Positions 24,142 through 45,251 of a stretch of 45,654 nt of DNA are shown here, piece after piece (within the stretch, counting starts at the first letter, position 1; each line of letters begins with the position of its first letter). The notes under the pieces were generated by a model. That model was not told where the DNA came from. It saw only the letters and a program-made list of their open reading frames with translations, and searched no databases. The position numbers and the translations under genes were made by a program. This stretch comes from a bacterium (GTDB taxonomy: Bacteria > Patescibacteriota > Microgenomatia > JAUYPR01): NCBI GenBank assembly GCA_030695785.1, contig JAUYPR010000055.1, forward strand, positions 1-45,654. The letters are read 5' to 3'.

Positions 24142-24378
24142 TCATACCAGCCGTTTGTTCCGAAACGCAAATCCTGAGCTGGCTTTTAAGTATTTTTCGA
24201 AAGCGATTGCTTTTCTTTTAGAAGCAAATGCTGCATAAAAAACGAGGGCTGCAGGAAGAAATTTCTTTGTTTGGCTGACCGCTCCATGCTGATGATAATG
24301 TATCCTCTGCCTTAAATTATCAGAGAAACCATGATAGTAACTTCCATCAGAGAGCCTAAGAATGTATACGTAATGCAT
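24142..24378 (-). CDS. GIY-YIG nuclease-family small protein
   Basis: MHYVYILRLSDGSYYHGFSDNLRQRIHYHQHG...AIAFEKYLK shows GIY-YIG hallmarks. The track start at 24417 was trimmed to the ATG at 24378. Confidence 0.8.
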   Translation of the reverse strand: MHYVYILRLSDGSYYHGFSDNLRQRIHYHQHGAVSQTKKFLPAALVFYAAFASKRKAIAFEKYLKASSGFAFRNKRLV

Positions 24379-24500
24379 GGGATTTGTCCCACTTCGCTGA
24401 AGCTTCGCGGGACACACTTCGCATCAATATACCAAAGATTTACAGTTTACAAACTGTGGCCTGCCACGCGAAGCTCCGAGTGTATACGAGGAGCGAAGTG

Positions 24501-24892: not shown

Positions 24893-24975
24893 GAGATAAA
24901 AAAGAATCCTCTGGACTGTACGTCCAGCTGCATCCTAAGATATAGTATACAAAAGAACGCGGTTTTTGTCAACCG

Positions 24976-25689
24976 ATGGACCAACTCAAAACGTTCATTT
25001 TCGACCTTCTCTTCCCCCGCCGCTGTGTAGGATGTTCTTCCTGGGGAATGGTGCTGTGTGCACATTGCCGCGAGTCGTTTCGAGAAACGACTCGCATCTG
25101 CCCAGCGTGTGAACGTCCGTCGATTGACGGTATGACACATCCGGGGTGCCGCAAGAGCACGGGCATCGACGGCTTGGTTGCGGCAGTTGTTTATCAGGAT
25201 GCAGTGCGCGCCGTGGTGCATGCGATGAAATACAAGTGGGTGACGATGCTCGCCCCAATAGTCAGCCAAGAAATGCTCCGAAGGATGCATGCCCACCCGC
25301 TCGAGAAACTTCTTGTATCAAAAAAAGGCGTCTTGATCCCCATTCCCTTGCACAAGAGCCGAGAACGGGCTCGCGGGTTTAACCAAAGCGAAATCATCGC
25401 ACGCCACCTTGGGCAGCTCCTTGCACTTCAGGTAGAGTCGGATATGCTGACACGCGTCCAAGCAACCCCACCTCAAGTTGCACGCAGTGGAAAGGAACGG
25501 CGGGCTGCGATGCACGGAGCATTTGCTGTTCCGCATCCGGATCGTTGCAAAGGAAAAACGGTTCTTCTCGTGGATGACGTGTGGACCACTGGTTCAACCA
25601 TGCGGGAAGCAGGCCGTGTACTCAAACGATCAGGCGCGTTGGAGGTCATTGGCCTTGTGTTTGCACGGTCAGAAGGCCGACTGGTATAA
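24976..25689 (+). CDS. comFC: ComF-family protein (ComFC-like phosphoribosyltransferase-fold competence protein)
   Basis: N-terminal Cys-rich LLFPRRCVGCSSWGMVLCAHCRESF...CPACE, RGFNQSE, and PRT motif VLLVDDVWTTGSTMREA. Confidence 0.85.
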   Translation: MDQLKTFIFDLLFPRRCVGCSSWGMVLCAHCRESFRETTRICPACERPSIDGMTHPGCRKSTGIDGLVAAVVYQDAVRAVVHAMKYKWVTMLAPIVSQEMLRRMHAHPLEKLLVSKKGVLIPIPLHKSRERARGFNQSEIIARHLGQLLALQVESDMLTRVQATPPQVARSGKERRAAMHGAFAVPHPDRCKGKTVLLVDDVWTTGSTMREAGRVLKRSGALEVIGLVFARSEGRLV

Positions 25690-25698
25690 TATAAATCG

Positions 25699-25791
25699 GG
25701 TGGGTTGGCTGAGTGGTTTAAAGCGGAGGTTTGCTAAACCTCTGGCGCTCTAAAAGGTGCCGCACAGGTTCGAATCCTGTACCCACCGCCA
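25699..25791 (+). tRNA. tRNA-Ser (anticodon GCU), CCA encoded
   Basis: GGTGGGT/ACCCACC acceptor stem, GAGGT-TTGCTAA-ACCTC anticodon arm, 21-nt variable arm, ACAGG-TTCGAAT-CCTGT T arm, then G-CCA. Its TGGTATAAT promoter overlaps the comFC stop codon. Confidence 0.9.
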
Positions 25792-25849
25792 CGTAATAAT
25801 TTTGCAAGACAAAATTAAACGTGGCTGGGAAGTCAGACTCCCCGCAAAA

Positions 25850-25935
25850 GGAGGGTTGGCCGAGTGGTTTATGGCGCTGGTCCTGAAAACCAGTGGGTCT
25901 TAAAGCCCTCAGAGGTTCGAATCCTCTACCCTCCG
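25850..25935 (+). tRNA. tRNA-Ser (anticodon UGA), apparent C at position 33
   Basis: GGAGGGT/ACCCTCC acceptor stem, CTGGT-CCTGAAA-ACCAG anticodon arm, variable arm TGGGTCTTAAAGCCCTC, AGAGG-TTCGAAT-CCTCT T arm, discriminator G. Confidence 0.85.
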
Positions 25936-25937
25936 CC

Positions 25938-29869: not shown

Positions 29870-31606
29870 TCACTTCTGTTCGATGTTAAAAAGTTTACTC
29901 CGAATCGCAATATATCCCGGCGCACGGAGATTGAATGTGTCTTTGAACTCTGACCCCGGAATGTCAACAGCGCCGCGATTTGTCTGGAGGCGGACATTCG
30001 CGGTACGGCCATCGCCGGAATACGAGATACTGACGGACGACACCGAGGTATACGCACCGCCCAACTCATCTGCCTTTTGACGCAATGCATCCATCGAGTA
30101 CGGATTCCCGCCTGACCCACCCAGCGCACAGGATCCGATGGTCGTGGGCAGAATCCGGGCAACGTCATCCGACGATCCTGCCTTACGCACCAACCAGCCG
30201 TTCAAAATATCTGCAAACTCCTCTTGCGTCAGCCATGGGTGAGATCGGCCGCAATTCGCCGAGGTCTTCGGGTATGACTGTGTGTACCACCCCTTGTAAA
30301 ACCAGGGCGAATTCGCGATTTTTTCATACGCCTCGCCTGTCCAACAGTCTTTCCCTCCACACGTGGTGTCCCATCCCATGGTATCAATATACCCGCCAGT
30401 CGTGGAAGAATAAAATGCAGTCACGCCTTCCACAATCTGGCCGCGGGTTTCTTCCACTGCCTGTTTCCATTCAGCCGGAGGGTTTGCCGCTTTCGAGTTC
30501 GAGAAGACTTGGCACGATTCCGTGACACAAATGGTTGTTCCATTGGTTTTGTACCGCATTGCATACGACCGCGCAGCCACGGCTTGCGCTTTCAGCGCTT
30601 CTTTTGGAAACGTGGATGGCATTTCCGCAATGCCGAGAAGGTAATACCCTTCAAAATCCACTGTGCCAAACCCTTCGACCGAAATCGTACCGCCAGTATC
30701 TTTTGTCTCTGGATCCTTTCCATAGTAGGCGCGGAGAATCGCTTTATAGTCGTGCCCCCGCTCGGCGCGGCCCTTTGCGCCATACTGGCTCATACCTTTC
30801 CAGTGAGAAAACGCGCCGAAGGAAAAGCCCGCGAATGCGGGGGAGAAGCCGGGGTTAAACGTCGGAGACGCATTGGAATCGTCCGTGAGCGGCACATCGC
30901 CAATGCTGGTGGTAAACGTCCCGGAGCGGGCCGACAAAATTTCCTGCTGGCGGGAGGTGAGCGACGCGATCTGCTGGGACAGCTTGGTTTGATAGGCACG
31001 GGCTTTCCCCACCTCGCCTTTCAAAAATGCGGCGCGCTCATCGGCTTGCGCTTTTAATCCGAAGAAGCGTTTTTGGTCTTGCTCTAGTTTGAATTTTAAC
31101 GACTCTGCCTCAACCTTTTTGGTGTGCAGGCCCCGCAGTTCATCGGACAGTTCGACAATAACATCTTTATCCTGGCCTGCCGCAGATTCGCGGTAAGAAA
31201 TGGCACGGAAAAAGCTGCCGACACTACCGCTTGAGAGAAAAAGGTAAAATGGAATATCCTTGCGTTTGTACATGTAGTATGAACGGACCCGGTCGGTAAA
31301 CACTTGCTGCTGCAAATCTAAAAGTTTTTGCTCTTCCTGAATCTGACGTTGAAGATCTTTGAGCTGTTTTTCTTCCCGATCAATGGCGGCTTGCGCCTGT
31401 TCGATTTTTTTGAACAAATCATCGAGTTTGGCCTGGAGGTTTCCCAACTCCCCTTCCAAGGGTTTGGTTGCGTCCTGCGACATCTGCAACGCGCGGGCCA
31501 GGTCATCAATCTGCTTTTGCAGATCATCCAGCTCATCCGCGGCAATGGGGCGGATGGGAAGAAGCACCAGGGCGACGGCAAGGAGAAGGAGAAGCAGTTT
31601 TCTCAT
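29870..31606 (-). CDS. SpoIID/LytB-domain protein with an N-terminal coiled coil (peptidoglycan remodelling)
   Basis: Signal peptide MRKLLLLLLAVALVLLPIRPIAA, long heptad-like region, and SpoIID signature EALKAQAVAARSYA...FYSSTTGGY. TGTTACAAT lies 6 nt upstream of the ATG at 31606. Confidence 0.85.
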   Translation of the reverse strand: MRKLLLLLLAVALVLLPIRPIAADELDDLQKQIDDLARALQMSQDATKPLEGELGNLQAKLDDLFKKIEQAQAAIDREEKQLKDLQRQIQEEQKLLDLQQQVFTDRVRSYYMYKRKDIPFYLFLSSGSVGSFFRAISYRESAAGQDKDVIVELSDELRGLHTKKVEAESLKFKLEQDQKRFFGLKAQADERAAFLKGEVGKARAYQTKLSQQIASLTSRQQEILSARSGTFTTSIGDVPLTDDSNASPTFNPGFSPAFAGFSFGAFSHWKGMSQYGAKGRAERGHDYKAILRAYYGKDPETKDTGGTISVEGFGTVDFEGYYLLGIAEMPSTFPKEALKAQAVAARSYAMRYKTNGTTICVTESCQVFSNSKAANPPAEWKQAVEETRGQIVEGVTAFYSSTTGGYIDTMGWDTTCGGKDCWTGEAYEKIANSPWFYKGWYTQSYPKTSANCGRSHPWLTQEEFADILNGWLVRKAGSSDDVARILPTTIGSCALGGSGGNPYSMDALRQKADELGGAYTSVSSVSISYSGDGRTANVRLQTNRGAVDIPGSEFKDTFNLRAPGYIAIRSKLFNIEQK

Positions 31607-31695: not shown

Positions 31696-32829
31696 ATGAT
31701 CCCAAGATTAGTTGAAGATTTGGTATTCTCAAAAATCACAACCTCCAAGAAAATCGTCCTCTTGTTCGGAGCGCGGCAGGTTGGAAAAACGACGCTCGTG
31801 CGACGGATGGAAGAACGGCTCAAGGCCAAGGGGAAACGAGTCCAATATTTCAACTGCGACTTCCAAGAAGAGAAGGATGCGATCAATACAACCTCAAAGG
31901 CAGTCCTTGGGCAGCTTGTTTCGGAGGTCGACGCATTACTCATTGACGAAGCACAGCGGCTTGACAATCCCGGGTTGACGCTGAAAAACATCCACACGCT
32001 CTCACCGGATCTTTATCTTCTTGCAACAGGATCATCGAGTTTTGAGCTTAAAAACACACTCAGCGATTCACTCACAGGACGGTACGTGGACTTCACGTTA
32101 TATCCCTTCTCCTTTACAGAAGTCATCCCCAACGAGAAGCCTGATGCGTTGTTGCCGTCGGCATTTGTCTACGGTTTGTACCCGGAAGTTTATCTTGAGA
32201 AAAACCCGTCTGAAAAACAGGCGCTGCTCAATCGGCTCGTTGACAGCTACCTGTTTCGAGATGTCCTCACGTTTCAGCGTGTGCAAAACTCCCAGGCCAT
32301 CAAAGATTTAACACGGGCGCTCGCGTATCAAATTGGATCGGAGGTCAACCCGAACGAATTGGCAAATCGCCTGAAGATTGACCGAAAAACCGTCATCAAT
32401 TACCTTGAGGTTTTAGAGAAATCATTTGTCATTGTCACGTTAACGCCATTTTCAAAAAATCCTCGTCGAGAAATCGGAAAAAATTCTAAGGTTTATTTTG
32501 TCGATCTCGGCGTCAGAAATGCGTTGATCGGAGATTTCAATCCCATGCATCTGCGTGCGGATGCTGGAGCTGTGTGGGAGAACTTTCTTGTTCTTGAGCG
32601 CCTGAAGTCATTTGCCAACCGCAATGAACAGGTCTCCCATTACTTTTGGCGTCATTATTCAGGGGCGGAAGTAGACTACCTTGAAAAAAGGTCGTCCAGA
32701 GAACTTCAGGCGTTCGAATTGAAGGTTGGAAGCGGATCATTACGGAAGGGTGCTCGTTCTTTTACCGACGACTATGGCGTCAAAGTTCAATTAATTAATG
32801 GTGAAAATTATTTGGACTTCATCCGCTGA
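31696..32829 (+). CDS. AAA+ ATPase with a C-terminal DUF4143-like domain
   Basis: Walker A is GARQVGKTTL and Walker B is ALLIDEAQ. The length and C-terminal pattern (YFWRHYSGAEVDYL) are typical of the AAA_14/DUF4143 family. Confidence 0.85.
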   Translation: MIPRLVEDLVFSKITTSKKIVLLFGARQVGKTTLVRRMEERLKAKGKRVQYFNCDFQEEKDAINTTSKAVLGQLVSEVDALLIDEAQRLDNPGLTLKNIHTLSPDLYLLATGSSSFELKNTLSDSLTGRYVDFTLYPFSFTEVIPNEKPDALLPSAFVYGLYPEVYLEKNPSEKQALLNRLVDSYLFRDVLTFQRVQNSQAIKDLTRALAYQIGSEVNPNELANRLKIDRKTVINYLEVLEKSFVIVTLTPFSKNPRREIGKNSKVYFVDLGVRNALIGDFNPMHLRADAGAVWENFLVLERLKSFANRNEQVSHYFWRHYSGAEVDYLEKRSSRELQAFELKVGSGSLRKGARSFTDDYGVKVQLINGENYLDFIR

Positions 32830-32882: not shown

Positions 32883-34160
32883 ATGTCACGTTTTATCATC
32901 TGGTTTTCCCGCGCAAGCGGTGTTCTCTTTGTAACCCTTTTGGGGCTGAGTGTTGCGCAACCAGTCTATGCAGATTTCAAAGTCATCGGAACTTCTCCTG
33001 ATTTAATTGCATGTCCATATGTCGTTATCCCGAACGCTCACTGGCGATGTATGGATAAGGATGAAAATGTTCAGACAAAGATGTCGTTTCGCGTCAGTTC
33101 TTCAGAACCATTGCTTGATAACGTCACATACCTACTACGAATCTCTAAAAATAGCGACCCGAACAACTTTGGTTTTGCGCCTGCTAAAAAGATACCCGAC
33201 AACGAACTCATCTTCGAATGGGATTTCAATGGCATTGGAACAATAAGAACCGATCCTCATTTTATAGCCCAACCAGGAGTCTGGACGCTTGAGCTTTATG
33301 CTCCAGGCAAGCTTGAATATGATTATGGCCGTAGTTTTCCACGCTTTCTTCCAGACCAGAAGAAAAAATTAGAAAATACAACGTTCATTATCTACGAAGG
33401 ACCAAAAAAGCAACCTACCTTTCGCGCAAAAAGGATACGTTATCCGGCCAATACAAAAGAAGTTGAATTTGAAATTCTCAACACCACAAAAAGCGTTCGG
33501 TATGAAGTATGGTGGGATGGAGAGACACCTGGTTTTGGTAAAAGTGGAACGTCTGAGCAGTCAGGTTCTACTCTCAATCTCAAATTGAAATGGAGTGGTC
33601 AGGCGAGAGAACGAGGACAACTAGCCTGTATGGCAATACCAACCTCTGGATTTCTCGTTGGATTAAAATGTGAAGATTTTTCGACCGTCGTTTACTTTCT
33701 CTCAACAGACCCTGGCGATGGAGGAGGACCCTCGGAACCCCTCGGAGACAGAAATGGAGATCCGTTTACTCACGAATTAAAAACCGTCTCTGGAGGCGGT
33801 GTCACTAGACTTATTCGCGAACCGCGTAAATACGAAAGAGTAATCTTCTGTCAAGAAAAGCAAAACGAAGAAAGTGGTGTAGTAATTCACACCGGAATAG
33901 GATGTATTCCTACAACACCTTCTGCATTGCTTGGTTTTCTGCTCCGCTTTGCCATTGGCATTGGGGGCGGGGCGGCTTTGCTTATCATGGCATTTGGGAG
34001 TATTCAAATGATGACGGCGCAAGGCGATCCGGAGAAATTGAATGAAGGCCGGGAGAAGTTTGTGGGCGCGCTTGCTGGACTTTTGTTTATTGTTTTCAGT
34101 ATATTCTTGTTGAATGTGATCGGCGTCCAGATTTTTGCCATTCCGGGGTTCCCAAAATGA
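32883..34160 (+). CDS. Pilin-module fusion 1: large exported beta-rich N-terminal domain plus C-terminal VirB2/TrbC-type T4SS pilin module
   Basis: Signal peptide MSRFIIWFSRASGVLFVTLLGLSVAQPVYA. C-terminus LLRFAIGIGGGAALLIMAFGSIQMMTAQGDPEKLNEGREKFVGALAGLLFIVFSIFLLNVIG is a two-helix pilin hairpin. Confidence 0.7.
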   Translation: MSRFIIWFSRASGVLFVTLLGLSVAQPVYADFKVIGTSPDLIACPYVVIPNAHWRCMDKDENVQTKMSFRVSSSEPLLDNVTYLLRISKNSDPNNFGFAPAKKIPDNELIFEWDFNGIGTIRTDPHFIAQPGVWTLELYAPGKLEYDYGRSFPRFLPDQKKKLENTTFIIYEGPKKQPTFRAKRIRYPANTKEVEFEILNTTKSVRYEVWWDGETPGFGKSGTSEQSGSTLNLKLKWSGQARERGQLACMAIPTSGFLVGLKCEDFSTVVYFLSTDPGDGGGPSEPLGDRNGDPFTHELKTVSGGGVTRLIREPRKYERVIFCQEKQNEESGVVIHTGIGCIPTTPSALLGFLLRFAIGIGGGAALLIMAFGSIQMMTAQGDPEKLNEGREKFVGALAGLLFIVFSIFLLNVIGVQIFAIPGFPK

Positions 34161-34903
34161 AGATCCAACTCTCTTTTTTCCTTACCTCAATACTCTGCTT
34201 TCTTTTCATTGCAACACCGGCTCGAGCAATTGAGATTGAGATAGAGGTGAAAAAGGGTAACCCCAATACTGCCGTTATCTCTGTCTGGGATTTTCGTGGT
34301 TTCTCGCCACGCGTTGGCATGTTTGACAGCTCTAGCCTTGTCAAATGTGTCTATCTTCCAACAACCGAAGCAACAGAAACTTCAAAGGCAACCGTTGAGT
34401 TTACCCTCCCCCAAAGGACATCGACGCAAACATTTGTTAATTTTGCCATTCTCAAAACAAAACAATCACTCTCTGGTGCTTCAAAAACACCCTGTTCAGG
34501 AGATGATGCGCTCATTGAATACCTCGGCGAGACAAAAATGATTGATCTCCCAGAGGGGCAAACCTCTACGCTTGCGCCCTCTTCTTCGTTAAAACCGTCA
34601 TTCTCTTTCTCCCTCCCCAAAGACCCGACCCGATTTGCGGGGATGAAGATTTTGGACCTGTTTAACCCAATCGGAACTGGGGCGGGGTTGCTGCAGATTA
34701 TCTTGGGGCTCGCCTTGGCTGTTTCCTTCCTCTTTTTTGCCTTAGGTGCGGTGCGCTATATGCTCTCGGCCGGAGATGCGAAAAAGGCGGAAGAAGCACG
34801 GAACCATATCACCATGGCAGTCGTGGGACTGGTTATTGTTGTGGTTGCGTTTTTCTTAGTCCAGATTTTGGGGCGAATGTTTGGAACAGGGGTCACGAGA
34901 TGA
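34157..34903 (+). CDS. Pilin-module fusion 2
   Basis: ATGA overlap with the upstream gene. Signal peptide, about 170-aa N-terminal domain, then LAVSFLFFALGAVRYMLSAGDAKKAEEARNHITMAVVGLVIVVVAFFLVQIL. Confidence 0.75.
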   Translation: MKIQLSFFLTSILCFLFIATPARAIEIEIEVKKGNPNTAVISVWDFRGFSPRVGMFDSSSLVKCVYLPTTEATETSKATVEFTLPQRTSTQTFVNFAILKTKQSLSGASKTPCSGDDALIEYLGETKMIDLPEGQTSTLAPSSSLKPSFSFSLPKDPTRFAGMKILDLFNPIGTGAGLLQIILGLALAVSFLFFALGAVRYMLSAGDAKKAEEARNHITMAVVGLVIVVVAFFLVQILGRMFGTGVTR

Positions 34904-35391
34904 GGTTCAAAGTTTTCACTTTTGCGCTGTCGCTTTGCGTCTTGAGTCTTGCGCTTTTCGCTTTCCCATCGGGGGTCTCTGCACAATCCGGACAAAATTG
35001 CAACGAGATTCCTCGTGGAGAAGACCAAGATACGTGTTGGGAGAAACAACGAGCAGAATTCCAACAAAAAACGACCGATCAGTCGACGCCAGGTTTCTCT
35101 TTCAATCTTGGATCGTTTTACCAACCCGTTGCGGGAAAGGTCGCGTTTCAATCGTTTGGTGGTGCGGTTGGGTTTGCGTATCGAGTGATTCTGCTCTTTG
35201 CCGGCATCATCGCGTTTTTCCTGTTGATTCTTGGGGGCGTTCGGTATATCATCAGTGGTGGTGACGCAAAGAAAACTGAAGAAGCGCGCAATATGCTAAC
35301 CATGGCAATCATTGGCTTTGCGTTGGTGGTACTGGCGGCGATGATCTATCCTTTGTTGCAGCGATTTTTGGGGCTGCCGAAACTTTTCTAG
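34900..35391 (+). CDS. Pilin-module protein 3
   Basis: ATGA overlap. Signal peptide, Cys pair CNEIPRGEDQDTC, then IIAFFLLILGGVRYIISGGDAKKTEEARNMLTMAIIGFALVVLAAMI. Confidence 0.8.
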   Translation: MRFKVFTFALSLCVLSLALFAFPSGVSAQSGQNCNEIPRGEDQDTCWEKQRAEFQQKTTDQSTPGFSFNLGSFYQPVAGKVAFQSFGGAVGFAYRVILLFAGIIAFFLLILGGVRYIISGGDAKKTEEARNMLTMAIIGFALVVLAAMIYPLLQRFLGLPKLF

Positions 35392-35408
35392 AAAATTCCA
35401 AGGACCAA

Positions 35409-35903
35409 ATGACAAATTCCAAACAAATTTCAAGATTCAAAATTCAAATCTTGATCCTCCTTGTCTGTTCATGGTTTTTGGTCCTTGGTCCTTCACAGGT
35501 TTCTGCTCAACAACAATGTAGTCAATTTAAACAATTCTCAGAAGAGTGGTACGAGTGCACTGGAGTCAAACTTGATACTCGTGCACCGATATCAGAATTG
35601 GGAACCATCGATAATCCCCTCGTCGGCAAGTACCGCGGGCCAGGAGGAATCAGCAATCTTCTCAACAATGTCGTTTCACTCATTTTCATTATTGCCGGCA
35701 TTTTGGTCTTTTTCTTCCTGCTCTTTGGCGGGATCAAGTGGATTGTCTCTGGCGGAGATGCGAAGAAAACTGAAGAAGCACGGAATATGATTACTGCGGC
35801 GATTGTCGGACTTGCCATTGTGGCATTGGCATGGGCTATCGTAAAAGTTTTGGAACAATTCTTTGGATTGCCCCTGACAGGTGGGGCAATTCCGACGCCC
35901 TAA
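35409..35903 (+). CDS. Pilin-module protein 4
   Basis: Signal peptide, Cys pair CSQFKQFSEEWYEC, then ILVFFFLLFGGIKWIVSGGDAKKTEEARNMITAAIVGLAIVALAWAIVKVLE. Confidence 0.8.
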   Translation: MTNSKQISRFKIQILILLVCSWFLVLGPSQVSAQQQCSQFKQFSEEWYECTGVKLDTRAPISELGTIDNPLVGKYRGPGGISNLLNNVVSLIFIIAGILVFFFLLFGGIKWIVSGGDAKKTEEARNMITAAIVGLAIVALAWAIVKVLEQFFGLPLTGGAIPTP

Positions 35904-35911
35904 TTTGCCAC

Positions 35912-35941
35912 TTGACAAATGTGCTTCAGTCTATCTATAAT
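35912..35941 (+). promoter_or_regulatory. Internal consensus promoter inside the pilin array, leaderless geometry
   Basis: TTGACA (35912-35917), 18-nt spacer, TATAAT (35936-35941), 6 nt, ATG at 35948. Confidence 0.6.
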
Positions 35942-35947
35942 CTTAAT

Positions 35948-36352
35948 ATGATGAAGAAGCTCCTCGCAGGTGCTACGGGTGCAGCCGCATATCTTTTGTG
36001 GGCCGGGCAACATGCAGTTGTGTTTGCACAAACAACAAGTTTAGGGATTAATCGTCCAGCAATCGGCAATAGCCCCATTGGTCCAACTGATCTCAATAGT
36101 GTCATCAACGCACTGGTACAACTCGCATTCATTGTCGCAGTCATCCTTGTCTTCTTCTTCCTTGTCTTCGGAGGCATCAAATGGATCATTTCGGGTGGAG
36201 ATCAAAAGAAAACTGAAGAGGCGCGAAATATGATCACAGCCGCCATTGTTGGTTTAGCGATTGTCGCGCTTGCATATGCTATCGTAAAAGTTCTTGAAGC
36301 ATTCTTCAAAATCCCAATCTTTGGACAGGTTGCTCTCCCAACAACTCAATAA
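35948..36352 (+). CDS. Pilin-module protein 5 (close paralog of protein 4)
   Basis: Signal peptide MMKKLLAGATGAAAYLLWAGQHAVVFA, then ILVFFFLVFGGIKWIISGGDQKKTEEARNMITAAIVGLAIVALAYAIVKVLE. The track start at 35831 lies inside the previous gene. Confidence 0.8.
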   Translation: MMKKLLAGATGAAAYLLWAGQHAVVFAQTTSLGINRPAIGNSPIGPTDLNSVINALVQLAFIVAVILVFFFLVFGGIKWIISGGDQKKTEEARNMITAAIVGLAIVALAYAIVKVLEAFFKIPIFGQVALPTTQ

Positions 36353-36392
36353 TATAATTGACTTCTCGTTTTCTCTCCTGTAGACTTTGACT

Positions 36393-36719
36393 ATGCTTCT
36401 TGCGCAACTTTTTCCTTGGGGCAGTTGTGTCCAAGGCGATGTGGCCACGCTTGCCTGTGGAGGTGTTGTGGTCATTCGCATCCTTCAGCTCGTCGGGTCG
36501 CTGGCGCTTCTTGTCTTTTTCATCATGGCGCTTTTTGCCGGGTTTCAGTTGATGACCTCTGGAGGCGACGCAAAGGCCGTAGAAAAGGCCAGGGGCACGC
36601 TCACGCATGCTGTGATTGGTCTGGTCGCATTAGTTGTCGCGTTCTTGATTCTCCAGCTCATTGATACAGTCGCCTTCAAAGGAACGGGGATTTCCATCCT
36701 CAACTTTAGCCTTCCATGA
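36393..36719 (+). CDS. Pilin-module protein 6 (shortest; closest to a plain VirB2/TrbC-like pilin)
   Basis: MLLAQLFPWGSCVQGDVATLACGG..., then LLVFFIMALFAGFQLMTSGGDAKAVEKARGTLTHAVIGLVALVVAFLILQL. Confidence 0.75.
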   Translation: MLLAQLFPWGSCVQGDVATLACGGVVVIRILQLVGSLALLVFFIMALFAGFQLMTSGGDAKAVEKARGTLTHAVIGLVALVVAFLILQLIDTVAFKGTGISILNFSLP

Positions 36720-37414: not shown

Positions 37415-37654
37415 ATGAAAATTACACGCAGTACTGAAGTTGTTTCCGTATCTCTCCCCGCCCCGCTTTTACGCAAGCTTGACCAAGAAAGCAAGGAGGA
37501 GGGTCGGTCACGAAGTAATTTCATAAAAAATCTCCTCGTGCAATATCTGGAAAACAAACGATGGGAACACATCTATCGACGAGGCACAGAAACAGCACAA
37601 AAATTTAACCTCACTTCTGAGGACGATCTAGATCGTATCCTCCACAATGCGTAA
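37415..37654 (+). CDS. RHH/CopG-family antitoxin
   Basis: MKITRSTEVVSVSLPAPLLRKLDQESKEEGRSRSNFIKNLLVQYL is a ribbon-helix-helix pattern. TGcTATTAT lies 8 nt upstream of the ATG. Confidence 0.75.
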   Translation: MKITRSTEVVSVSLPAPLLRKLDQESKEEGRSRSNFIKNLLVQYLENKRWEHIYRRGTETAQKFNLTSEDDLDRILHNA

Positions 37655-38066
37655 ATCTCTTCCTTGCCGCGTTGTACTTGATACAAACGTTTTATTATCT
37701 GCGATTCTCTTCGGTGGTTACCCACGAACAATTCTTGAGTCTGCAAAGAAGCGTGATCTTCACCTGGTGACAAGCAAAGCATTACTTCTTGAGGCCGCAA
37801 ACGTCTTGTCAAAAAAATTCGCATGGAGTTCGTCTGATATCCAAGATGTCGTGCAAGGAGTTGATGTCTTTGCTGAAGTTATCGCTACGCATTCAAAACT
37901 CCGAGTGATCAAAAACGACCCGAGCGACAATATGGTACTGGAGTGTGCGCTGGATGGTAGAGCTGAAGTAATTATTTCCGGAGATAAACGCCACGTGCTC
38001 CCACTCAAAAGGTTTCGGAATATTCCCATTCTTTCTCCTGCAACATTTGTCAGAAAATATCTATAA
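37647..38066 (+). CDS. PIN-family toxin
   Basis: VVLDTNVLLSAILFGG, LLLEAANV and VIISGDKRHVLPL. It overlaps the antitoxin gene by 8 nt. Confidence 0.8.
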   Translation: MRKSLPCRVVLDTNVLLSAILFGGYPRTILESAKKRDLHLVTSKALLLEAANVLSKKFAWSSSDIQDVVQGVDVFAEVIATHSKLRVIKNDPSDNMVLECALDGRAEVIISGDKRHVLPLKRFRNIPILSPATFVRKYL

Positions 38067-38146: not shown

Positions 38147-41100
38147 ATGGCAGTTCCAGAAGGTCTACCAAACGGCAATGGCCCTGAGAATGAACCAATC
38201 TCTCCTCCCAAACCCGAGGCGGGTGGCGAACAGCAGTCATCATCTAAACGAAAAGCTCTTCAAGCAGAAACGTCCGATCAGAATCAAAAAACTAAATCGA
38301 CTAGCCCTGAAATAACTCCCCGACCAACGAAACAATCGAAAGAGAAAAAACCGCATGAAGAAGAATTAAAAAAAGGATTACTCGAAAAACTCCTTCAGCT
38401 CTTCAATATTAAATTGCCTGCTAGTAAAACTGGAATGGCGATTGGTGATTTTCAAGAGGCTCTCACATCAAAATTTGAAGCCAAGGGCATTAAACCTGGA
38501 ACAAAAACCTACGCCGAAGCCTTCATTGATGCGGGGAGGAAAATTCGTTCTCTTGAGAGAAACTCTGAGATTTCACAACAAGAAGCAAATTCAATAAATC
38601 ATGCGCTTGCAAGAGAAGCGTATGAGACTTTTCTTACATTAAGAGAAAGCGGAGGTGTTTCGGTATCAGAAATCGATGATTTAGAAGCTCAACTTGGATT
38701 AATCGAGAAGCCATTGGCGGGTGCTAGTCAACCGCCAACTGACCGTCTCAAACAACCCACGCCTGTAGATTTTGCGACTGATTATATACCTACAAATCTT
38801 GCAGGAAACAGTGACCTTATAGTATTAGCGGATAAGCTTCGTAATATACCTGCAACGGATCTCAGCCCGGGTAGAGTAGTTCTCCTCTATCAGGAGCTAA
38901 AAAATATTATAGACCAGTTGCCAACAAAGTTCAATCCTTCCACGCAATCGAAGGAATATTACGAAAATACCAAAGCAGCCTTTGACTTTCTTGCTAGTCT
39001 CAAGCTACTTACTGAAACACAGGCGGTCAGATATCTTCATTTATCACCCAACCACAAACTCGCATCATACGATAAGGAACTTATTCACAACCTTATCCCC
39101 GAGCTCACCCGCATGGTGGATCAAATTGAAGCCGGTATCCAGGGGCGACAATCACCTTACGGATTATCTGAATTTGAACAGAGAATTATTATTAATGGTC
39201 AAGGTCGTCTTGATGGAGAGCAGATGACAAGGGCAGAGCTATTCGCAAGGTTTTTCGGGGTTGCTAATGTGCTACCCGGTATGGATTTTCGATCTACTCT
39301 TTCCTATGAAGATACGGTTCGTATAAACTCATTTATTGCAACTTTACGATTCGCCACCAAAGATAGTTTTGCTATTGAGGGTCTCTCGAATTCAAATTAC
39401 AAAATGCTCATGGAATACTACGCGACAGAGTATCAGATCCGCGAACTCTTCCACAATGCAAACTATTTAACAAGAGCAAACGGAAAGCCCGAGGATCTTG
39501 CGAAATATCTTAATCCATTCCGTGGTGAATTCCTTGATTTCATTTTGAATAAGAAGCGAGAACAGTTTGTTGGAGTGAGCGATGTGATCAAAATGTTTGA
39601 AACCTCAATGCAAGAGATTTTACATCAAAATGCAGGGAGTTCACCAATGTACACAGAAATGGTGACTGATTACGACGAAGGGAGAGAATCCATCCTCGAA
39701 CATCGTGTCCGAAAAAAACTAGATCAACATCTAAAAATGCGCCTCATTCATGATGCTGACGGACGACCCGTACTTGAACTACCAGATTGGCAAAAAGAAC
39801 AAATTATTGGATTTGCACGCGGTTTTCATATTGTTACACTCCGTTTCGTCGAAATTGTCGCTGAAAACAGACTTCCTGCGGGACGGTTGAGACTCTTAGG
39901 AAGTCTTTATGGACATGAAATTGCACGTATCCTAGACCCGCTTGAACAGTTTATTGAGAAATACCAGGTTGCGAAAAAAGGTCCAGCGGCGATTCTTTCC
40001 TATGACATAAAGCAAAAACATGATAGCTTCTTTGGTTTTTTCCCAACATGGAATCCAAATAAGTTACTCGCAGATTTGGATAAAGTTGCGCCGGGAGATT
40101 CCCAACGAATCATGGATCTCTTGAACTTTATGCGTATCGGCGGTCCGTTTATGTCTGCCTGGAGAGCACATAATATCTCCGAACATATTCCAGATCACCT
40201 CCGAGGTGTTGGCCTGCGCCTCGGACTTTTGAGTCATGATGTATGGAATGAGATGGAAAAAAGCCATCAGAAGAACGAACAGCAACAAAAGATGTCGGAC
40301 AACGAGTGGCACAACGAGTGGGAGAGATTGAAAAAAGATAAAGGACTTGAACACATTCACGATGAGCGTGTCGCACAGCGGAAACGTGATATCTGGAGAG
40401 ATGCAAGTCGCTACCTTCCAAGAAGGGTTGCTTGGACTGATACAGACCCGAATTTTCGTCTCGAGACAATTGCGAAAACGCTCGGACTTTGGCAAGAAGT
40501 TAAAAACAATCGAAATCTATGGCAAGGAAATGACCAGCTAAGACAACACGAAGTTGAAGAATTCCTTCGACAACAAAGTATTATCAACTCGAGTCTGGGG
40601 GGAATAGAGGATAATAATTTACTTCAACAGTTAGAGAATGATCTAGAGATTGTTCAAGAGAAACTTATTCAAGGCTGGGATCACACCGGAAACCGCAAAA
40701 ATGATCAATATAAAGATATTTTTGATCTCCTCGCAAAGGAACCAAATTTTCTTGATGGTGATAAGGCGCGCTGTCAACGAGTACTGGAATTTGCACTAAG
40801 AGTTCGGACACGGTTTGATATTAATACCATCGATAAAAAACTCCAAAAGCTCAATCCCATCCTTATTGGTGCAGATATCTCTCAATCGTTTCTAGAGCAG
40901 GTTCGTGAAGAAATCAAGCAGGATCAGAATGCCGCGAGAAACAAGTATGGAAATAATCCGTTTTTTCAAGAAATTGCTAACATGGACGATGAAGCCGCAA
41001 AAAAGTGTCTTGAAGATGCGACGAAGCATCTGATTGACTTTGCAAAGCAAGAGCGTTCTTCCATCCTTGGTTTTGAAGACATGCCGTTTGATCAATTCCG

Positions 41101-41662
41101 ATTTATTGAAGCCGGAGGGAGTGGATTTATTGCCCGACGTATGAATGATTTCATGCATGCAGCACAAGCTGTCGTGGAATTAGTTAACCTCTTAAATGAT
41201 TTGCCCACATATCATGACGAAAGGCAAATCCTCGGCCAGCTCTATAAAATTAAATCGGGTGTTGAGGGTTACGACTCGACACATGCAGAGAAAGTTATGA
41301 AACAACTTATTACAGGTATCTCCAAGTATTATGCACGAGGAGGATGGTCAGCCGCCCCAGAACCAATTGGTTTTGTTGTCCGACTGTTCGGACGCTCGTC
41401 TGCGGCGCAAAGAAGACAAGGTCCAGAGGCGTTCAATTGGGATGAAACGGGAACTCGAAATTTCCTTACCGCCGCATGGAATATGCATCTTTTAGATAAA
41501 AAAGGGTTCCAGGAACTTTCTCGAGATCTTCATGCTGATAAACGAGCATTATTTGAAAAATACTTTCGAATTTTTGGACCATTAGCTTTTGTCATCCTTC
41601 TTCCTCTGTTTTTTGAGGAGTACCAAAAATATAATCAAAAAGCAGAGGCTTCAGTAAGGTAG
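38147..41662 (+). CDS. Orphan 1171-aa protein: disordered Lys/Glu/Pro-rich N-terminus, long largely helical body, single C-terminal TM (tail-anchor topology)
   Basis: TGtTATAAT lies 6 nt upstream of the ATG. No signal peptide, Walker motif or other catalytic motif was recognised. C-terminal FRIFGPLAFVILLPLFFEEY. Visibly more A+T-rich than the pilin genes. Confidence 0.75.
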   Translation: MAVPEGLPNGNGPENEPISPPKPEAGGEQQSSSKRKALQAETSDQNQKTKSTSPEITPRPTKQSKEKKPHEEELKKGLLEKLLQLFNIKLPASKTGMAIGDFQEALTSKFEAKGIKPGTKTYAEAFIDAGRKIRSLERNSEISQQEANSINHALAREAYETFLTLRESGGVSVSEIDDLEAQLGLIEKPLAGASQPPTDRLKQPTPVDFATDYIPTNLAGNSDLIVLADKLRNIPATDLSPGRVVLLYQELKNIIDQLPTKFNPSTQSKEYYENTKAAFDFLASLKLLTETQAVRYLHLSPNHKLASYDKELIHNLIPELTRMVDQIEAGIQGRQSPYGLSEFEQRIIINGQGRLDGEQMTRAELFARFFGVANVLPGMDFRSTLSYEDTVRINSFIATLRFATKDSFAIEGLSNSNYKMLMEYYATEYQIRELFHNANYLTRANGKPEDLAKYLNPFRGEFLDFILNKKREQFVGVSDVIKMFETSMQEILHQNAGSSPMYTEMVTDYDEGRESILEHRVRKKLDQHLKMRLIHDADGRPVLELPDWQKEQIIGFARGFHIVTLRFVEIVAENRLPAGRLRLLGSLYGHEIARILDPLEQFIEKYQVAKKGPAAILSYDIKQKHDSFFGFFPTWNPNKLLADLDKVAPGDSQRIMDLLNFMRIGGPFMSAWRAHNISEHIPDHLRGVGLRLGLLSHDVWNEMEKSHQKNEQQQKMSDNEWHNEWERLKKDKGLEHIHDERVAQRKRDIWRDASRYLPRRVAWTDTDPNFRLETIAKTLGLWQEVKNNRNLWQGNDQLRQHEVEEFLRQQSIINSSLGGIEDNNLLQQLENDLEIVQEKLIQGWDHTGNRKNDQYKDIFDLLAKEPNFLDGDKARCQRVLEFALRVRTRFDINTIDKKLQKLNPILIGADISQSFLEQVREEIKQDQNAARNKYGNNPFFQEIANMDDEAAKKCLEDATKHLIDFAKQERSSILGFEDMPFDQFRFIEAGGSGFIARRMNDFMHAAQAVVELVNLLNDLPTYHDERQILGQLYKIKSGVEGYDSTHAEKVMKQLITGISKYYARGGWSAAPEPIGFVVRLFGRSSAAQRRQGPEAFNWDETGTRNFLTAAWNMHLLDKKGFQELSRDLHADKRALFEKYFRIFGPLAFVILLPLFFEEYQKYNQKAEASVR

Positions 41663-41680: not shown

Positions 41681-43093
41681 TTAGGACTTTTGTTCCGGCG
41701 GTTGAGCTGTTGGAGCTGGTTGCGGTTTATTTCCACTGAAACGGTCCCTCAAATATCCAATTGGTCCTCGCTGTGCCATACCAAGGGCAACGCTCTGCGT
41801 CCATATTGAGAACGGGAATCTGACAGCGGTCGCCATTGGAGCAACGCCAGCCCCGACGCCTGCGCTAATCACCCCGCCATACTTAAACTCTGGGCTCTTG
41901 AAGGCGTCTTTCGTCATCTTCACCACTGCGGGGGTGAGGAACACAAAACCTAATCCAATCAAAGCCGCGACTTCATTTTGCCCATAGCCAGCGCCAATCA
42001 TAGGCGCCACCCACCCTTGTCCGGCATTCGTACCACCAGCCGAGAAGACGGCTTGATTCATAAATGCAGAACTCAAAATAAACATCCCCGCCGCAGTGGG
42101 AAATGCCGCCAGATTCCCGATCATATGCCGAAGCCACCCCCCAAACCCAAGGTTCCCGAGGTTTAAGGGCAACCCACCGAGCATAATCCAAAACGGCGCG
42201 AACACCACCCCAAGGATAATTTGGATGTACGCCATAAGCAACGTGAAGAACAACCTGAACATGACAAACACAAGACCAATGGCAATAACGAGCCACGCAA
42301 TAATGGAAAGCACGCTTCCCCCAAATCCTGCAAGGAATGGTGCCCCACCAAAAATTCCTGTTGCAATCGTATAAATTGCCTGTGCAGGCGCAGACGGCCC
42401 AATGCCGCTTCCCGCCCATAATGTAAACGGCGTTTCAGATTGAAAATCATTCCGGATATGCCCCGCAAAAGTCTCCATTCCAGGAATGCTCTGGAAGATA
42501 TTGAAGAAAAGGAACGACACCACATACATCACGTCAATCAAAAATCCAGCGATGGCAAACGAGAACGTGACCAGCAAAAGCGCAAGAATGATGCGTGGTA
42601 ATGAGTTTTGTATAGTTACCACGGTCCGCGGATCAATCCGGAACCGGAACATCACTAAAAATCCAACCGCGAGAAAGATCATCACGAAGAAAATGTAGGC
42701 AATATTCCGAAAGACCTTCCAAATATGGATGATCTGTTGCAATCCCTGAAAACCTGTGCCTTGCGCGTATGCGCTTGGCACCCCCATTCCATTCAACACA
42801 TCCGCCAAATAGGTTTGCGTTGAGGCGGCTGGATTTGTATACATGGCCGTCATTGCACCACCTAAACCCTGCACAGCCCCAAGTTCCCGCCCATCGGTTG
42901 TCCCAATTGCCATGGTTCCAGCTTTCAACATTAAATACTCTACGCTTGTTGATGACCAGTTCGCGAAATTCACACCATCTTTCGCGCGTTGGCTCTCATA
43001 ATCTTTAATCGGGTCAAAAACCTGCTGCGCACCTACCGGAAACGCGAGGGCGGAGAGGAGGAAGATGGTGATGAGGATGAAAAGTCGGCGCAT
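41681..43093 (-). CDS. VirB6/TrbL-like polytopic membrane protein
   Basis: Signal peptide MRRLFILITIFLLSALAFPVGA, an exported N-terminal segment, then at least 7 hydrophobic helices and a Pro/Gln-rich tail. The call rests on its size, topology and position next to the VirB3/VirB4-like genes. Confidence 0.65.
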   Translation of the reverse strand: MRRLFILITIFLLSALAFPVGAQQVFDPIKDYESQRAKDGVNFANWSSTSVEYLMLKAGTMAIGTTDGRELGAVQGLGGAMTAMYTNPAASTQTYLADVLNGMGVPSAYAQGTGFQGLQQIIHIWKVFRNIAYIFFVMIFLAVGFLVMFRFRIDPRTVVTIQNSLPRIILALLLVTFSFAIAGFLIDVMYVVSFLFFNIFQSIPGMETFAGHIRNDFQSETPFTLWAGSGIGPSAPAQAIYTIATGIFGGAPFLAGFGGSVLSIIAWLVIAIGLVFVMFRLFFTLLMAYIQIILGVVFAPFWIMLGGLPLNLGNLGFGGWLRHMIGNLAAFPTAAGMFILSSAFMNQAVFSAGGTNAGQGWVAPMIGAGYGQNEVAALIGLGFVFLTPAVVKMTKDAFKSPEFKYGGVISAGVGAGVAPMATAVRFPFSIWTQSVALGMAQRGPIGYLRDRFSGNKPQPAPTAQPPEQKS

Positions 43094-43166: not shown

Positions 43167-44411
43167 ATGACCCAACATCCCATTCCGCGCGATATCGCAT
43201 CATTCAAGTTCAAACTCGTCGGCAATATGACAGTCAGCCAATTTGCCATGCTTTCTGGCTGGATCATTGTGGCCTATGCCCTCTATCTCACCCCGCTCCC
43301 CAACCCCATCAAGCTCCCCTTTGTGCTGCTCGCAACTTTTCTTGCATTCGCGTTCCCATTTCTCCCGATTGAAGAACGGCCGCTGCATCATTGGATCCTT
43401 GCATTTCTGAAAGCCGCGTTTTTTACTGAATTGCGCCGCGTGTGGAAAAAGGCGGCCGCTGCCGACGATTTGTTTGCACTGCCTCTAAACCGGCTTGCGC
43501 CGGTCATCGCAAAACAGACAATATCTCCACCTGTATCAACAGAAACACCTCCACCATCAACAGTCACAATGCAGGGAGTTCAAACAACGGTTCAAACCGC
43601 ACCCACGATACCGCCTTCTTTGACACCAACACCTTCTATGACGATTCCTCCGATTCCTCCGCAGCCACAACCGATATTCATACCGAGACCACAGACATCT
43701 CCTCCACCTATCCCAACTGATCGAACCCAAAAAACCGCGCAGGAAATTATCCAAGAGGCGTCACTCACCCACATGGTCAAGACCGGTGACGATCGAAGCG
43801 ATATACTCCACACACAAAACGCGCACCTTGAAAAAATCATCCAAAAACTCGAAACTGACCTCGGAGATGTACGCAATCAGCAACAGCAATCGTTTCAGCA
43901 AAAAACAGCGCTCACGGACACGGTCACGCTTCTCCAGCAGCAATTGGCTGGCGCGATTGGTCAGCGGGAACATTTGAATCGCCAGCTCTATAGTTTGCAG
44001 GAATCCCCCCGGCCTTTGGCTGGAACCGCCGCAACTTCGACTCCACAGCGCGTGGTCATTATGCAGCCGCAACCGTCCATGTCAATGCCAAAACCTGCAG
44101 TGCCATCCACAATGCCCGCCCAACCATCGGGTGTGCTCCCACAACTCACCACCATTCCGAACGCCATCAACGGCATTGTCCGCGGAAAACAAAGCGAGTT
44201 TTTATCCGACGTCATTGTCGTGATTAAAGATCAAGCAGGACTGCCGGCTCGTGCGTTAAAAACCAATCGCCTTGGGCAATTTGTTGTCTCGACGCCGCTC
44301 CCGAACGGCACCTACTTCGTCGAGCTTGAAAAAGAAGGCTATACCTTTGATACAATTGAAGTGCAAGTGACCGGAAGAGTCTTAGGGCCAATCACCATTC
44401 AAGTGCGGTGA
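43167..44411 (+). CDS. PrgI/VirB3-like N-terminal membrane module fused to a Pro-rich linker, a coiled coil and a C-terminal carboxypeptidase-regulatory-like beta-sandwich
   Basis: PIPRDIASFKFKLVGNMTVSQFAMLSGWIIVAYALYL matches the PrgI-family start. Pro-rich PTIPPSLTPTPSMTIPPIPPQPQPIFIPRPQTSPPPIP. C-terminus INGIVRGKQSEFLSDVIVVIKDQAGLPARALKTNRLGQFVVSTPLPNGTYFVELEKEGY. Confidence 0.65.
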   Translation: MTQHPIPRDIASFKFKLVGNMTVSQFAMLSGWIIVAYALYLTPLPNPIKLPFVLLATFLAFAFPFLPIEERPLHHWILAFLKAAFFTELRRVWKKAAAADDLFALPLNRLAPVIAKQTISPPVSTETPPPSTVTMQGVQTTVQTAPTIPPSLTPTPSMTIPPIPPQPQPIFIPRPQTSPPPIPTDRTQKTAQEIIQEASLTHMVKTGDDRSDILHTQNAHLEKIIQKLETDLGDVRNQQQQSFQQKTALTDTVTLLQQQLAGAIGQREHLNRQLYSLQESPRPLAGTAATSTPQRVVIMQPQPSMSMPKPAVPSTMPAQPSGVLPQLTTIPNAINGIVRGKQSEFLSDVIVVIKDQAGLPARALKTNRLGQFVVSTPLPNGTYFVELEKEGYTFDTIEVQVTGRVLGPITIQVR

Positions 44412-44423
44412 GGATATTCCCTT

Positions 44424-45251
44424 ATGAGCACGCCTATTCGCGCCAGCACGCAAGAACATTTGGATATTGATGATGTCCGGGATCATCTCGTCCTCTTAAA
44501 AGACGGAGGTGCGGCCCTCGTTTTACAAACCACGGCCGTCAATTTTGGCTTGCTCTCGGAAACCGAGCAAGATGCCATGATGGTTGCCTTTGCAGCCACG
44601 TTAAATTCCCTCTCATTCCCGATCCAAATCGTCATCCGAAGTAAAAAATATGACATCACCACTTATATTGAGCGCCTGCGGCAAGCGGAACTCCGACAGC
44701 AAAACCCAAAATTCCGGAATCAAATGACACACTACCGCGCGTTTGTGGAATCCACCATCCAAGAAAACAATGTGCTGGACAAGCGATTTTATATCGTCAT
44801 TCCATTTTCGCCCATTGAGCTTGGCCTTGGATCAACCTTTGGGATCTTTAGCAGCCGCAAAATTCCGTATTCAAAAACATACATTCTGGAAAAAGCGAAG
44901 ACCGCACTATTCCCACGCCGCGATCATCTCCTGCGTCAACTCGGTCGCGTTGGGCTCAAAGGAACACAGTTGTCGACTGAACAACTCATTTCCTTGTATC
45001 ATGACATTTACAACCCAGACACGCCGCGCGGGCAACACGTGGGAACGCAAATTGATTCATTCACCGCACCGCTCGTCCAACGATCTGGTGCAGAACCACC
45101 TCCGCCGGTAAAAGAAGAGGTGCCGGTCGGTCAACCAATCATACAGCCGCAACCAACAAAACCCGCCATGCCGCCAACCCCAGACGCAATCCGCCATACC
45201 TTGACCCAGCTTGACTCTGCCATTCAGCGCCTGCGGGGAGGAAACATATGA
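44424..45251 (+). CDS. T4SS-associated protein resembling a free-standing VirB4 N-terminal domain
   Basis: GAGGA Shine-Dalgarno sequence. STQEHLDIDDVRDHLVLLKDGGAALVLQTTAVNFGLLSETEQDAMMVAFAATLNSLSFPIQIVIRSKKYDIT follows the pattern seen at the N-terminus of Gram-positive-type VirB4/TraE ATPases. The C-terminal tail is Pro-rich. Confidence 0.5.
   Translation: MSTPIRASTQEHLDIDDVRDHLVLLKDGGAALVLQTTAVNFGLLSETEQDAMMVAFAATLNSLSFPIQIVIRSKKYDITTYIERLRQAELRQQNPKFRNQMTHYRAFVESTIQENNVLDKRFYIVIPFSPIELGLGSTFGIFSSRKIPYSKTYILEKAKTALFPRRDHLLRQLGRVGLKGTQLSTEQLISLYHDIYNPDTPRGQHVGTQIDSFTAPLVQRSGAEPPPPVKEEVPVGQPIIQPQPTKPAMPPTPDAIRHTLTQLDSAIQRLRGGNI

Follow-up and report, generated by a model that had tools for sequence, protein, structure and literature searches.

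A probable VirB2-like pilin array with a consensus internal promoter in the type IV secretion locus of a Microgenomatia-type patescibacterium

Six contiguous genes, here named P1 to P6, lie on the forward strand of a 45,654-nucleotide stretch of patescibacterial DNA (contig JAUYPR010000055.1, hereafter the window) and encode products of 425, 248, 163, 164, 134 and 108 aa. We consider them to be, with a probability of roughly 0.6, a VirB2-like pilin array of a chromosomal, monoderm-type type IV secretion system (T4SS) in a Microgenomatia-type patescibacterium. As such, the array belongs to an already published kind, the tandem VirB2-like pilin arrays of Patescibacteria. According to PMC12102498, a survey of 3,035 genomes found 441 arrays of 2 to 11 VirB2-like pilin genes, spread over 383 assemblies of Patescibacteria and commonest in Microgenomatia and Saccharimonadia. 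In Southlakia, the pilin series of the T4SS cluster was found to be essential, and structure-based annotation identified the proteins as pilins (PMC10633639); six VirB2-like pilins conserved in structure but divergent in sequence were described there, and a pilus in a monoderm was speculated upon (PMC12857230). In the sole patescibacterium that has been genetically tested, epibiotic life cannot do without the T4SS. The present analysis gives a testable list of parts, in which P5 is likely the major subunit, P1 to P4 bear fast-evolving, presumably exposed domains that perhaps decide host specificity, and the transcription starts are predicted.

Results

A shared C-terminal pilin module

All six products exceeded the curated gathering cut-off (26.6 bits) of the Pfam family PF18895 (T4SS_pilin), with scores for P1 to P6 of 27.6, 38.4, 35.3, 50.0, 41.9 and 32.6 bits, respectively, of which that of P1 barely passes. 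Because the match lies at the C-terminal end in every case, the differences in length are confined to the part N-terminal to it. The module is composed of two hydrophobic helices with a short positively charged loop (SGGDAKKTEEARN) between them, and an alignment of the six modules shows invariant G, D (as GD), R, A and G columns in addition to this common loop; thus, the pilin module recognised in the initial annotation is not generic transmembrane low complexity. The NCBI product name of P1 and P4 is already "pilin", and the genes of an identical public contig (Logan), called independently, have the same six product sizes; the contig is also present in run SRR13727529.

In P1 (32883-34160), a signal peptide and the T4SS_pilin hairpin flank an N-terminal domain that is about 315 aa long and has three Cys pairs. 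P2 (34157-34903), the ATG of which overlaps the stop codon of P1 (ATGA), has a signal peptide and one Cys pair, and P3 (34900-35391), the ATG of which overlaps the stop codon of P2, has a signal peptide followed by the Cys pair C34/C46 (CNEIPRGEDQDTC). P4 (35409-35903) has the Cys pair C37/C50 and is preceded by a weak Shine-Dalgarno-like AAGGA. P5 (35948-36352), a short pilin, has a signal peptide, lacks Cys and is the candidate major subunit. P6 (36393-36719) has no signal peptide, and its tail, with C12/C22 and the motif DVATLAC, adjoins the first hydrophobic helix. A hydrophobicity scan found one N-terminal and two C-terminal hydrophobic stretches in each of P1 to P4 and only the two C-terminal stretches in P5, whose signal peptide was read from the sequence (MMKKLL...VVFA/QTT). 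The array thus shows the signal peptide, two helices and short charged loop of the VirB2/TrbC type, P6 having the helices without the signal peptide.

Arrays were defined in PMC12102498 as at least two VirB2-like genes in tandem or one non-pilin gene apart. The window contains six such genes without interruption, together with monoderm-type T4SS genes (VirB4 being recognised by synteny), in a patescibacterial host, and the locus is chromosomal because dnaG and rpoD are in the same window.

A consensus promoter at a fixed position of the array

Upstream of P5, on the forward strand (35912-35941), TTGACA (35912-35917) and TATAAT (35936-35941) are separated by an 18-nt spacer, and a gap of 6 nt lies between the latter and the ATG (35948). 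No other 12/12 match to the consensus was seen within the 8 kb scanned, in which about 0.003 such matches would be expected by chance (our own estimate). The related loci L002, L003 and L004 retain both hexamers and the 6-nt gap, despite a synonymous divergence of about 0.6 to 2.7 between the lineages. For a wider comparison, one genome per species was scanned, which gave 73 related loci, and the pilin genes in all loci retrieved were identified with a hidden Markov model of the module. A perfect TTGACA at -48 to -30 of the penultimate pilin gene was present in 60 of 76 arrays, as compared with 0 to 3 at the other positions and a chance expectation of 0.65%. Judged by its sequence, the P5 promoter is the strongest of the array.

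The initial annotation had suggested that this promoter would allow the two short pilins to be expressed independently of the larger ones. The internal promoter itself is well supported by its conservation, but P6 has a conserved promoter of its own (36358-36386, forward strand), in which TTGACT (36358-36363) and TAGACT (36381-36386) are separated by a 17-nt spacer and the latter again ends 6 nt before the ATG; it is almost identical in L002 to L004. In the related arrays, a TANNNT hexamer ends 6 or 9 nt before the ATG of the last gene in 46 of 77 cases. Eight is the number of genes in 44 of the 75 arrays tallied, and in eight-gene arrays (L007-L077) the third gene, which is the sixth from the end, has a spike of TANNNT 6 nt before the ATG (18 of 61), which suggests an additional internal promoter there.

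When a -10 hexamer is followed by 6 nt and the ATG, transcription is expected, by established promoter geometry, to start at the A of the ATG. Of the 87 first ATGs of long open reading frames (ORFs) in the window, 9 have a -10-like hexamer that ends exactly 6 nt upstream, as compared with 1.4% of the other ATGs (Fisher p = 1.7e-5). Starts of this kind, besides those of P5 and P6, are at 2951, 18963 (reverse strand, dnaG), 19966 (reverse), 24134 (reverse), 26019, 31606 (reverse, SpoIID), 31696, 38147, 43093 (reverse) and 43167 (PrgI), so that at least 12 gene starts have leaderless geometry. A Shine-Dalgarno motif was seen at few genes of the window and at neither P5 nor P6. The operon-internal starts are of other kinds, with ATGA overlaps between P1 and P2, P2 and P3, and P6 and the following gene P7, and the weak AAGGA before P4. 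The mRNAs of P5 and P6 would then be leaderless, and the geometry in the window points to a routine use of leaderless mRNAs by this lineage, for which a limited literature search found no specific report in Patescibacteria. Routine leaderless mRNAs would matter for gene calling and for the design of expression in Patescibacteria.

The promoter-like sites could also be chance matches or relics, the array being a single operon whose transcription begins upstream either of P1 or of the preceding ATPase gene. The consensus scan, which found 11 promoter-like sites as compared with a mean of 8.1 in shuffled sequence, and the lack of any predicted terminator inside the array would both fit such an operon. 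We nevertheless regard it as very improbable: the P5 site alone matches at all 12 positions and persists in relatives that are nearly saturated at synonymous sites, the -35 box is found at this one position of the arrays far more often than expected, and the 6-nt geometry is enriched at the real gene starts of the window.

An old duplication gave P4 and P5

The modules of P4 and P5 are identical at 56 of 71 residues (79%), or at about 91% over a 55-residue core by our own count, and the local identity of the two proteins is 64%; "nearly identical", as they had been described, somewhat overstates this likeness. At the DNA level, the modules are 71% identical, and 37 of the 62 differences are at third codon positions. 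The number of nonsynonymous substitutions per site (dN) is 0.18 and that of synonymous substitutions (dS) about 1.9, which is saturated (dN/dS about 0.1). In a comparison of three genomes, the module DNA identity of the paralogs was 0.75 to 0.78 both within and between genomes, and that of the orthologs 0.80 to 0.83. Because the identity of the paralogs is equal within and between genomes, and is below that of the orthologs, the duplication predates the split of the lineages. The proposal of an old duplication under purifying selection is thus confirmed, and the same equality and the saturated dS led us to reject the idea that P4 and P5 evolved in concert or recently underwent gene conversion.

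A protein of 131 aa from an ENA contig (P0011) has an N-terminus of the P5 type and a C-terminal tail of the P4 type. It is either a natural recombinant of P5 and P4 or an assembly chimera across the repeated module.

N-terminal parts, Cys pairs and signal peptides

Comparison with L002 separates the two parts of the proteins. The N-terminal parts of P2 to P5 are 44 to 63% identical (dN 0.3-0.56), and the short tail of P6 is 88% identical; the modules of P2, P3, P4 and P6 are 89 to 94% identical (dN about 0.05), and that of P5 79% (dN 0.16). The N-terminal parts are thus fast-evolving and, in the predicted topology, outward-facing. The P2 ortholog was found in L002 only.

The initial annotation noted Cys pairs just after the signal-peptide cleavage site of P3, P4 and P6. 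These pairs are present and are kept in orthologs, but the pair of P6 does not follow a signal-peptide cleavage site. P1 and P2, which had not been named, are also paired, at 44/56, 249/263 and 323/341 in P1 and at 64/113 in P2, and P5 has no Cys at all. The P3 orthologs P0021 and the second gene of L002 retain a Cys pair; the P4 orthologs P0009 and P0010 (206-207 aa) retain the pair and bear a second one, the sequence of which, CYNIDPGDRREAC, is similar to that of P3 given above. Among 529 array pilins, the number of Cys residues N-terminal to the module was zero in 418, two in 56, a higher even number in 48 and odd in only 7, and in the two-Cys pilins of the related arrays the residues are spaced by 7 to 17. 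The near-absence of odd numbers suggests disulfides and hence an extracytoplasmic N-terminal part, of both of which the even-Cys rule may be a signature.

In P6, extension of the ORF upstream of 36387 is impossible, and the Cys pair lies in the 24-residue tail before the first hydrophobic helix. No classical signal peptide was seen in P6 by reading of the sequence and by script. A lipobox was considered for this N-terminus and rejected, neither Cys being in the canonical L-[AS]-[GA]-C context on reading of the sequence. The motif DVATLAC of P6 recurs as GVATLxC in last-gene pilins of many related arrays. Many short pilins, from last and penultimate genes of L007 to L078, are without a classical signal peptide: those of the penultimate type often start with MxLLA, and those of the last gene start straight with the short tail and GVATL- or DLExVF-like motifs.

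The N-terminal domain of P1 had no relatives in a word-index search or in a HMMER scan of 1.84 billion representative proteins, apart from marginal matches of short stretches (E >= 3e-5), and neither sequence searches nor an AlphaFold2 model allowed a fold or an adhesin to be assigned to it. In the AlphaFold2 model of P1 alone (mean predicted local distance difference test score, pLDDT, 42.7), only the hairpin H346-378/H383-418 is confident, and the predicted beta-rich N-terminal domain is untrustworthy. Directly before the first module helix, residues 323 to 341 of P1 (33849-33905) read C...HTGIGCIP. The same Cys-loop motif, as C...DTAIGCIP, is found in pilins of the first-gene type of eight-gene arrays (first genes of L015, L025 and L031). 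Because it has this motif, P1 may represent the first-gene type, extended by a large N-terminal part.

Organisation of related arrays

The related loci with informative titles are from Woesebacteria, Shapirobacteria, Levybacteria, Chisholmbacteria, Amesbacteria and other Microgenomates. Roughly every second related record of a metagenome-assembled genome (L006-L078) is titled "uncultured Gammaproteobacteria bacterium", yet these records have loci of the Microgenomatia type, with SpoIID, array, PrgI and TrsD; these titles look like placeholder or wrong taxon labels.

A stepwise decrease in size along the operon, with variation only in the N-terminal part, had also been noted. The six sizes hold exactly in this genome, but related arrays do not keep the staircase: none of 69 is monotone, the largest gene standing first in 51 of them and the smallest last in 47. 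Already in the close relative L002, the order is broken (264/282, 187, 206, 134 and 109 aa). Proteins of at least 160 aa occupy position 1 in 40 of the 69 arrays and are rare at other positions. We therefore rejected the staircase as a conserved design and consider it incidental, only the largest-first and smallest-last tendencies being recurrent.

Conservation in the 44 eight-gene arrays is a matter of position. The mean pairwise identity of the module is 75% for the penultimate gene and 51 to 69% for the other positions, and the mean full-length identity of same-position pilins between genomes is 46 to 64%. By these comparisons, the paralogs appear as position-specific orthologs conserved across the class, and P5 is likely the major subunit, because its promoter is the strongest and because conservation among the paralogs is highest at the position equivalent to its own.

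It has been proposed for Patescibacteria (PMC12102498) that such paralogs are interchangeable variants of one subunit, for host-range switching or antigenic variation, and the internal promoters would then serve alternative expression. The fast divergence of the N-terminal parts, the unique N-terminal domain of P1 and the resemblance of P0011 to a P5/P4 recombinant are in line with this proposal. However, the orthology is position-specific, which argues against it: the identity of same-position pilins between genomes is well above the approximately 25% reported for paralogs within an array (PMC12102498), P4 and P5 do not evolve in concert, and promoter strength is bound to one fixed position. 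Together with the essentiality of the pilin series in Southlakia, this makes interchangeable variants distinctly unlikely.

Fold and relation to known pilins

With an alignment as input, AlphaFold2 predicted P5 as a hairpin, H49-81/H86-120, with pLDDT of about 90. The best NCBIfam matches of the array were to NF045849, in which P2 scored 32.9 bits and the other shorter proteins 18.7 to 23.5 bits; because all of these are below the curated cut-off of 40, these proteins are not members of this family.

Several points weigh against the reading of the array as pilins with P5 as major subunit. A profile of the pilins found only weak, irrelevant matches among the sequences of the PDB, and Foldseek found no match of the P5 model to the PDB at E <= 0.001. 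Comparison by hhalign with unverified sequences of VirB2 and TraA gave E = 0.24 and 0.46, which is not significant. Since a bare helical hairpin carries little signal, such weak fold and sequence comparisons speak neither for nor against homology. In addition, the patescibacterial T4SS pilus is only a possibility in the literature, and T4SSs of monoderms are normally pilus-free (PMC12102498, PMC10633639, PMC12857230). The signal peptides were called by reading of the sequence and a crude script, and the higher expression of P5 is a prediction from its promoter. Furthermore, no terminator-like site is predicted between P4 and P5 or between P5 and P6, so that read-through is possible, and in the more distant L005 the P5 ortholog is preceded by a GGGAGGTGA stretch, with no promoter close by.

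In the main alternative, the module does no more than anchor the proteins in the membrane, in or beside the channel; P1 to P4 would then be adhesins at the surface or accessories of the channel, and P5 and P6 small components of it. Such anchors would fit the pilin-like proteins with two helices that are known from the conjugation systems of mycoplasma and Gram-positive bacteria, and the sub-threshold matches to NF045849, the lack of a link to solved pilus subunits in our searches and the generally pilus-free state of monoderm T4SSs all agree with them. On the other hand, a consensus promoter on the most conserved paralog suggests a structural subunit of high copy number, six to eight position-specific paralogs exceed the need for a simple anchor, and the Southlakia proteins were called pilins in a structure-based annotation (PMC10633639). 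We consider the anchor somewhat unlikely, and the VirB2-like pilin array is the reading adopted below.

Neighbouring genes of the T4SS locus

The T4SS gene order of the window recurs in many related loci. Divergent from the array, on the reverse strand (29870-31606), is the gene for a SpoIID-domain protein (PF08486) with an N-terminal coiled coil, which adjoins the array in 53 of the 73 related loci. VirB1 is reported to be mostly missing from genomes with patescibacterial pilins, and the SpoIID protein, as a candidate cell-wall-opening partner, could have a VirB1-like role. Between it and P1 is the gene for an AAA_14/DUF4143 ATPase (31696-32829, forward strand) with its own promoter of the leaderless type (TTGACA-17-TAATAT). 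It is absent at the equivalent place in L005 and present in 3 of the 73 loci; it is an insertion and not a part of the secretion system. It was considered as the first gene of the pilin operon and rejected for its absence from L005 and nearly all related loci, although it might be co-transcribed with the array in this genome.

P7 (36716-37381, forward strand), the start of which overlaps the stop codon of P6, encodes a secreted protein of 221 aa that has six Cys and lacks the pilin module. In L002, the P6 ortholog is followed by a homolog, and L005 has a gene of similar size (226 aa) there, which P7 did not match. Between P7 and the next gene is a pair of a ribbon-helix-helix antitoxin and a PIN toxin (37415-38066, forward strand), which is absent in the syntenic L005 and is an insertion inside the T4SS locus. 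The following gene (38147-41662, forward strand; TATAAT, 6 nt, ATG) encodes a protein of 1171 aa with one C-terminal hydrophobic helix and no family match, and a homolog of 941 aa is at the same place in L005.

A polytopic membrane protein of 470 aa (41681-43093, reverse strand), recognised from its hydrophobicity profile and with a signal peptide, has homologs in 57 of the 73 related loci and no Pfam or NCBIfam match. It is a candidate for a divergent VirB6-like channel component; VirB6 is scarce in Microgenomatia (PMC12102498). Next are genes on the forward strand for a PrgI/VirB3-like protein (43167-44411, 414 aa; PF12666 above the cut-off) and a TrsD/TraC-N-like protein (44424-45251, 275 aa), which resembles the N-terminal part of VirB4, with weak matches to PF11130, NF045975 and NF041427, and whose counterpart in L005 is annotated as PF26593 TraC-like. 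The start of a VirB4-like ATPase gene (45248-45654, forward strand), cut by the end of the window, is assigned by synteny with L005, where the gene at this place has P-loop_TraG, DUF87 and AAA_10; the fragment of 135 aa in the window had no Pfam match.

Elsewhere in the window, a low-GC stretch (4850-6931; 34-38% as compared with about 50% elsewhere) has three ORFs without Pfam matches and may be foreign DNA, and a tRNA cluster (21960-25937) has six genes, four for Ser and two for Arg.

Discussion

A model of expression and assembly

Membership of the pilin family, the setting in a T4SS locus, the promoter sequences with their conservation, the pattern of selection and the pairing of Cys are shown by the analysis. 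In the model outlined here, we infer from the sequence where transcription starts, how strongly the genes are expressed relative to one another, which way the proteins face, that the Cys pairs form disulfides and that there is a filament. The two-helix hairpin of the module would embed in the membrane and polymerise. The N-terminal parts would face outside, stapled by disulfide-forming Cys pairs, and evolve fast. The array would be transcribed as at least three units, namely P1 to P4, P5, and P6 with P7. The N-extended paralogs P1 to P4 would be translated via overlapping stop and start codons or a weak Shine-Dalgarno sequence. P5 would be transcribed from its own consensus promoter, starting at the A of the ATG and giving a leaderless mRNA, and P6 and P7 would follow the second promoter of the same geometry. 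P5 would then be the abundant major subunit. P1 to P4 and P6 would be made in low copy number and have position-specific roles, either displaying surface domains or starting or capping the assembly. A split into major and minor pilins with P5 as the major one is thus plausible on the sequence features.

More tentatively, and with less confidence than we have in the array itself, the idea may be extended to Microgenomatia in general. Their T4SS may form a heteropolymeric filament with a fixed list of parts, comprising a penultimate major pilin, the most conserved paralog, with its own consensus, often leaderless, promoter; position-specific minor pilins, among them a first-gene type whose surface domain evolves fast, is stapled by disulfides and possibly recognises the host; and a last-gene type without a signal peptide as starter or cap. 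Beside these would be the conserved SpoIID-type enzyme, possibly replacing the missing VirB1.

Comparison with known systems

The closest counterparts are the arrays of Southlakia epibionticum ML1 (SEML1_0006-0019) and those surveyed in PMC12102498. Like the array of the window, these are made up of tandem divergent PF18895/VirB2-like genes amid PrgI/VirB3, TrsD and VirB4; patescibacterial arrays are chromosomal and especially common in Microgenomatia, and Southlakia also has six pilins. Two differences can be noted. In the window, four of the six proteins have long N-terminal extensions (up to about 315 aa), whereas related arrays usually have one such protein, and the identity of P4 and P5 (64% local, 79% in the module) is above the maximum of 54% reported. 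The fixed-position promoter, the leaderless geometry, the pairing of Cys and the pilins without signal peptides are not covered in the passages drawn on of these papers, and PMC12102498 does not contain the terms "promoter", "signal peptide" or "disulfide" at all. The promoter idea generalises across the bacterial class and is likewise not mentioned in those passages of PMC12102498, PMC10633639 and PMC12857230.

VirB2, TrbC and TraA of diderm bacteria are similarly small, have a signal peptide and two hydrophobic helices with a short basic loop between them, are encoded beside the VirB3 and VirB4 genes, and provide one major subunit to which minor components are added. However, no significant sequence or fold match to them was found, and the present host is monoderm. 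The minor tip protein is VirB5 in the diderm systems, whereas the minor components here would be pilin paralogs; furthermore, the present array has fusions to N-terminal domains and one class of paralog without a signal peptide.

Tandem amplification and divergence within a T4SS locus are also known from the VirB2 arrays of Bartonella and Anaplasma (cited in PMC12102498). Their members are thought to be interchangeable antigenic variants, whereas the array described here consists of position-specific orthologs with one fixed, strongly promoted member. NF045849 (Mbov_0395 family) of the mycoplasma integrative and conjugative element is a two-helix pilin-like protein of wall-less or monoderm conjugation, which P2 to P6 match weakly. 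It has neither an array nor N-terminal domains, and the scores of 18.7 to 32.9 bits are sub-threshold.

With type IV pili, the analogy is functional only. In these, an abundant short subunit is accompanied by low-copy paralogs that share the polymerisation module, and disulfide loops are exposed, but the family and the machinery are unrelated, the conserved module is N-terminal and a prepilin peptidase is needed. If the filament of fixed parts is real, it would be a VirB2-based counterpart, in a monoderm, of the logic of major and minor subunits in type IV pili.

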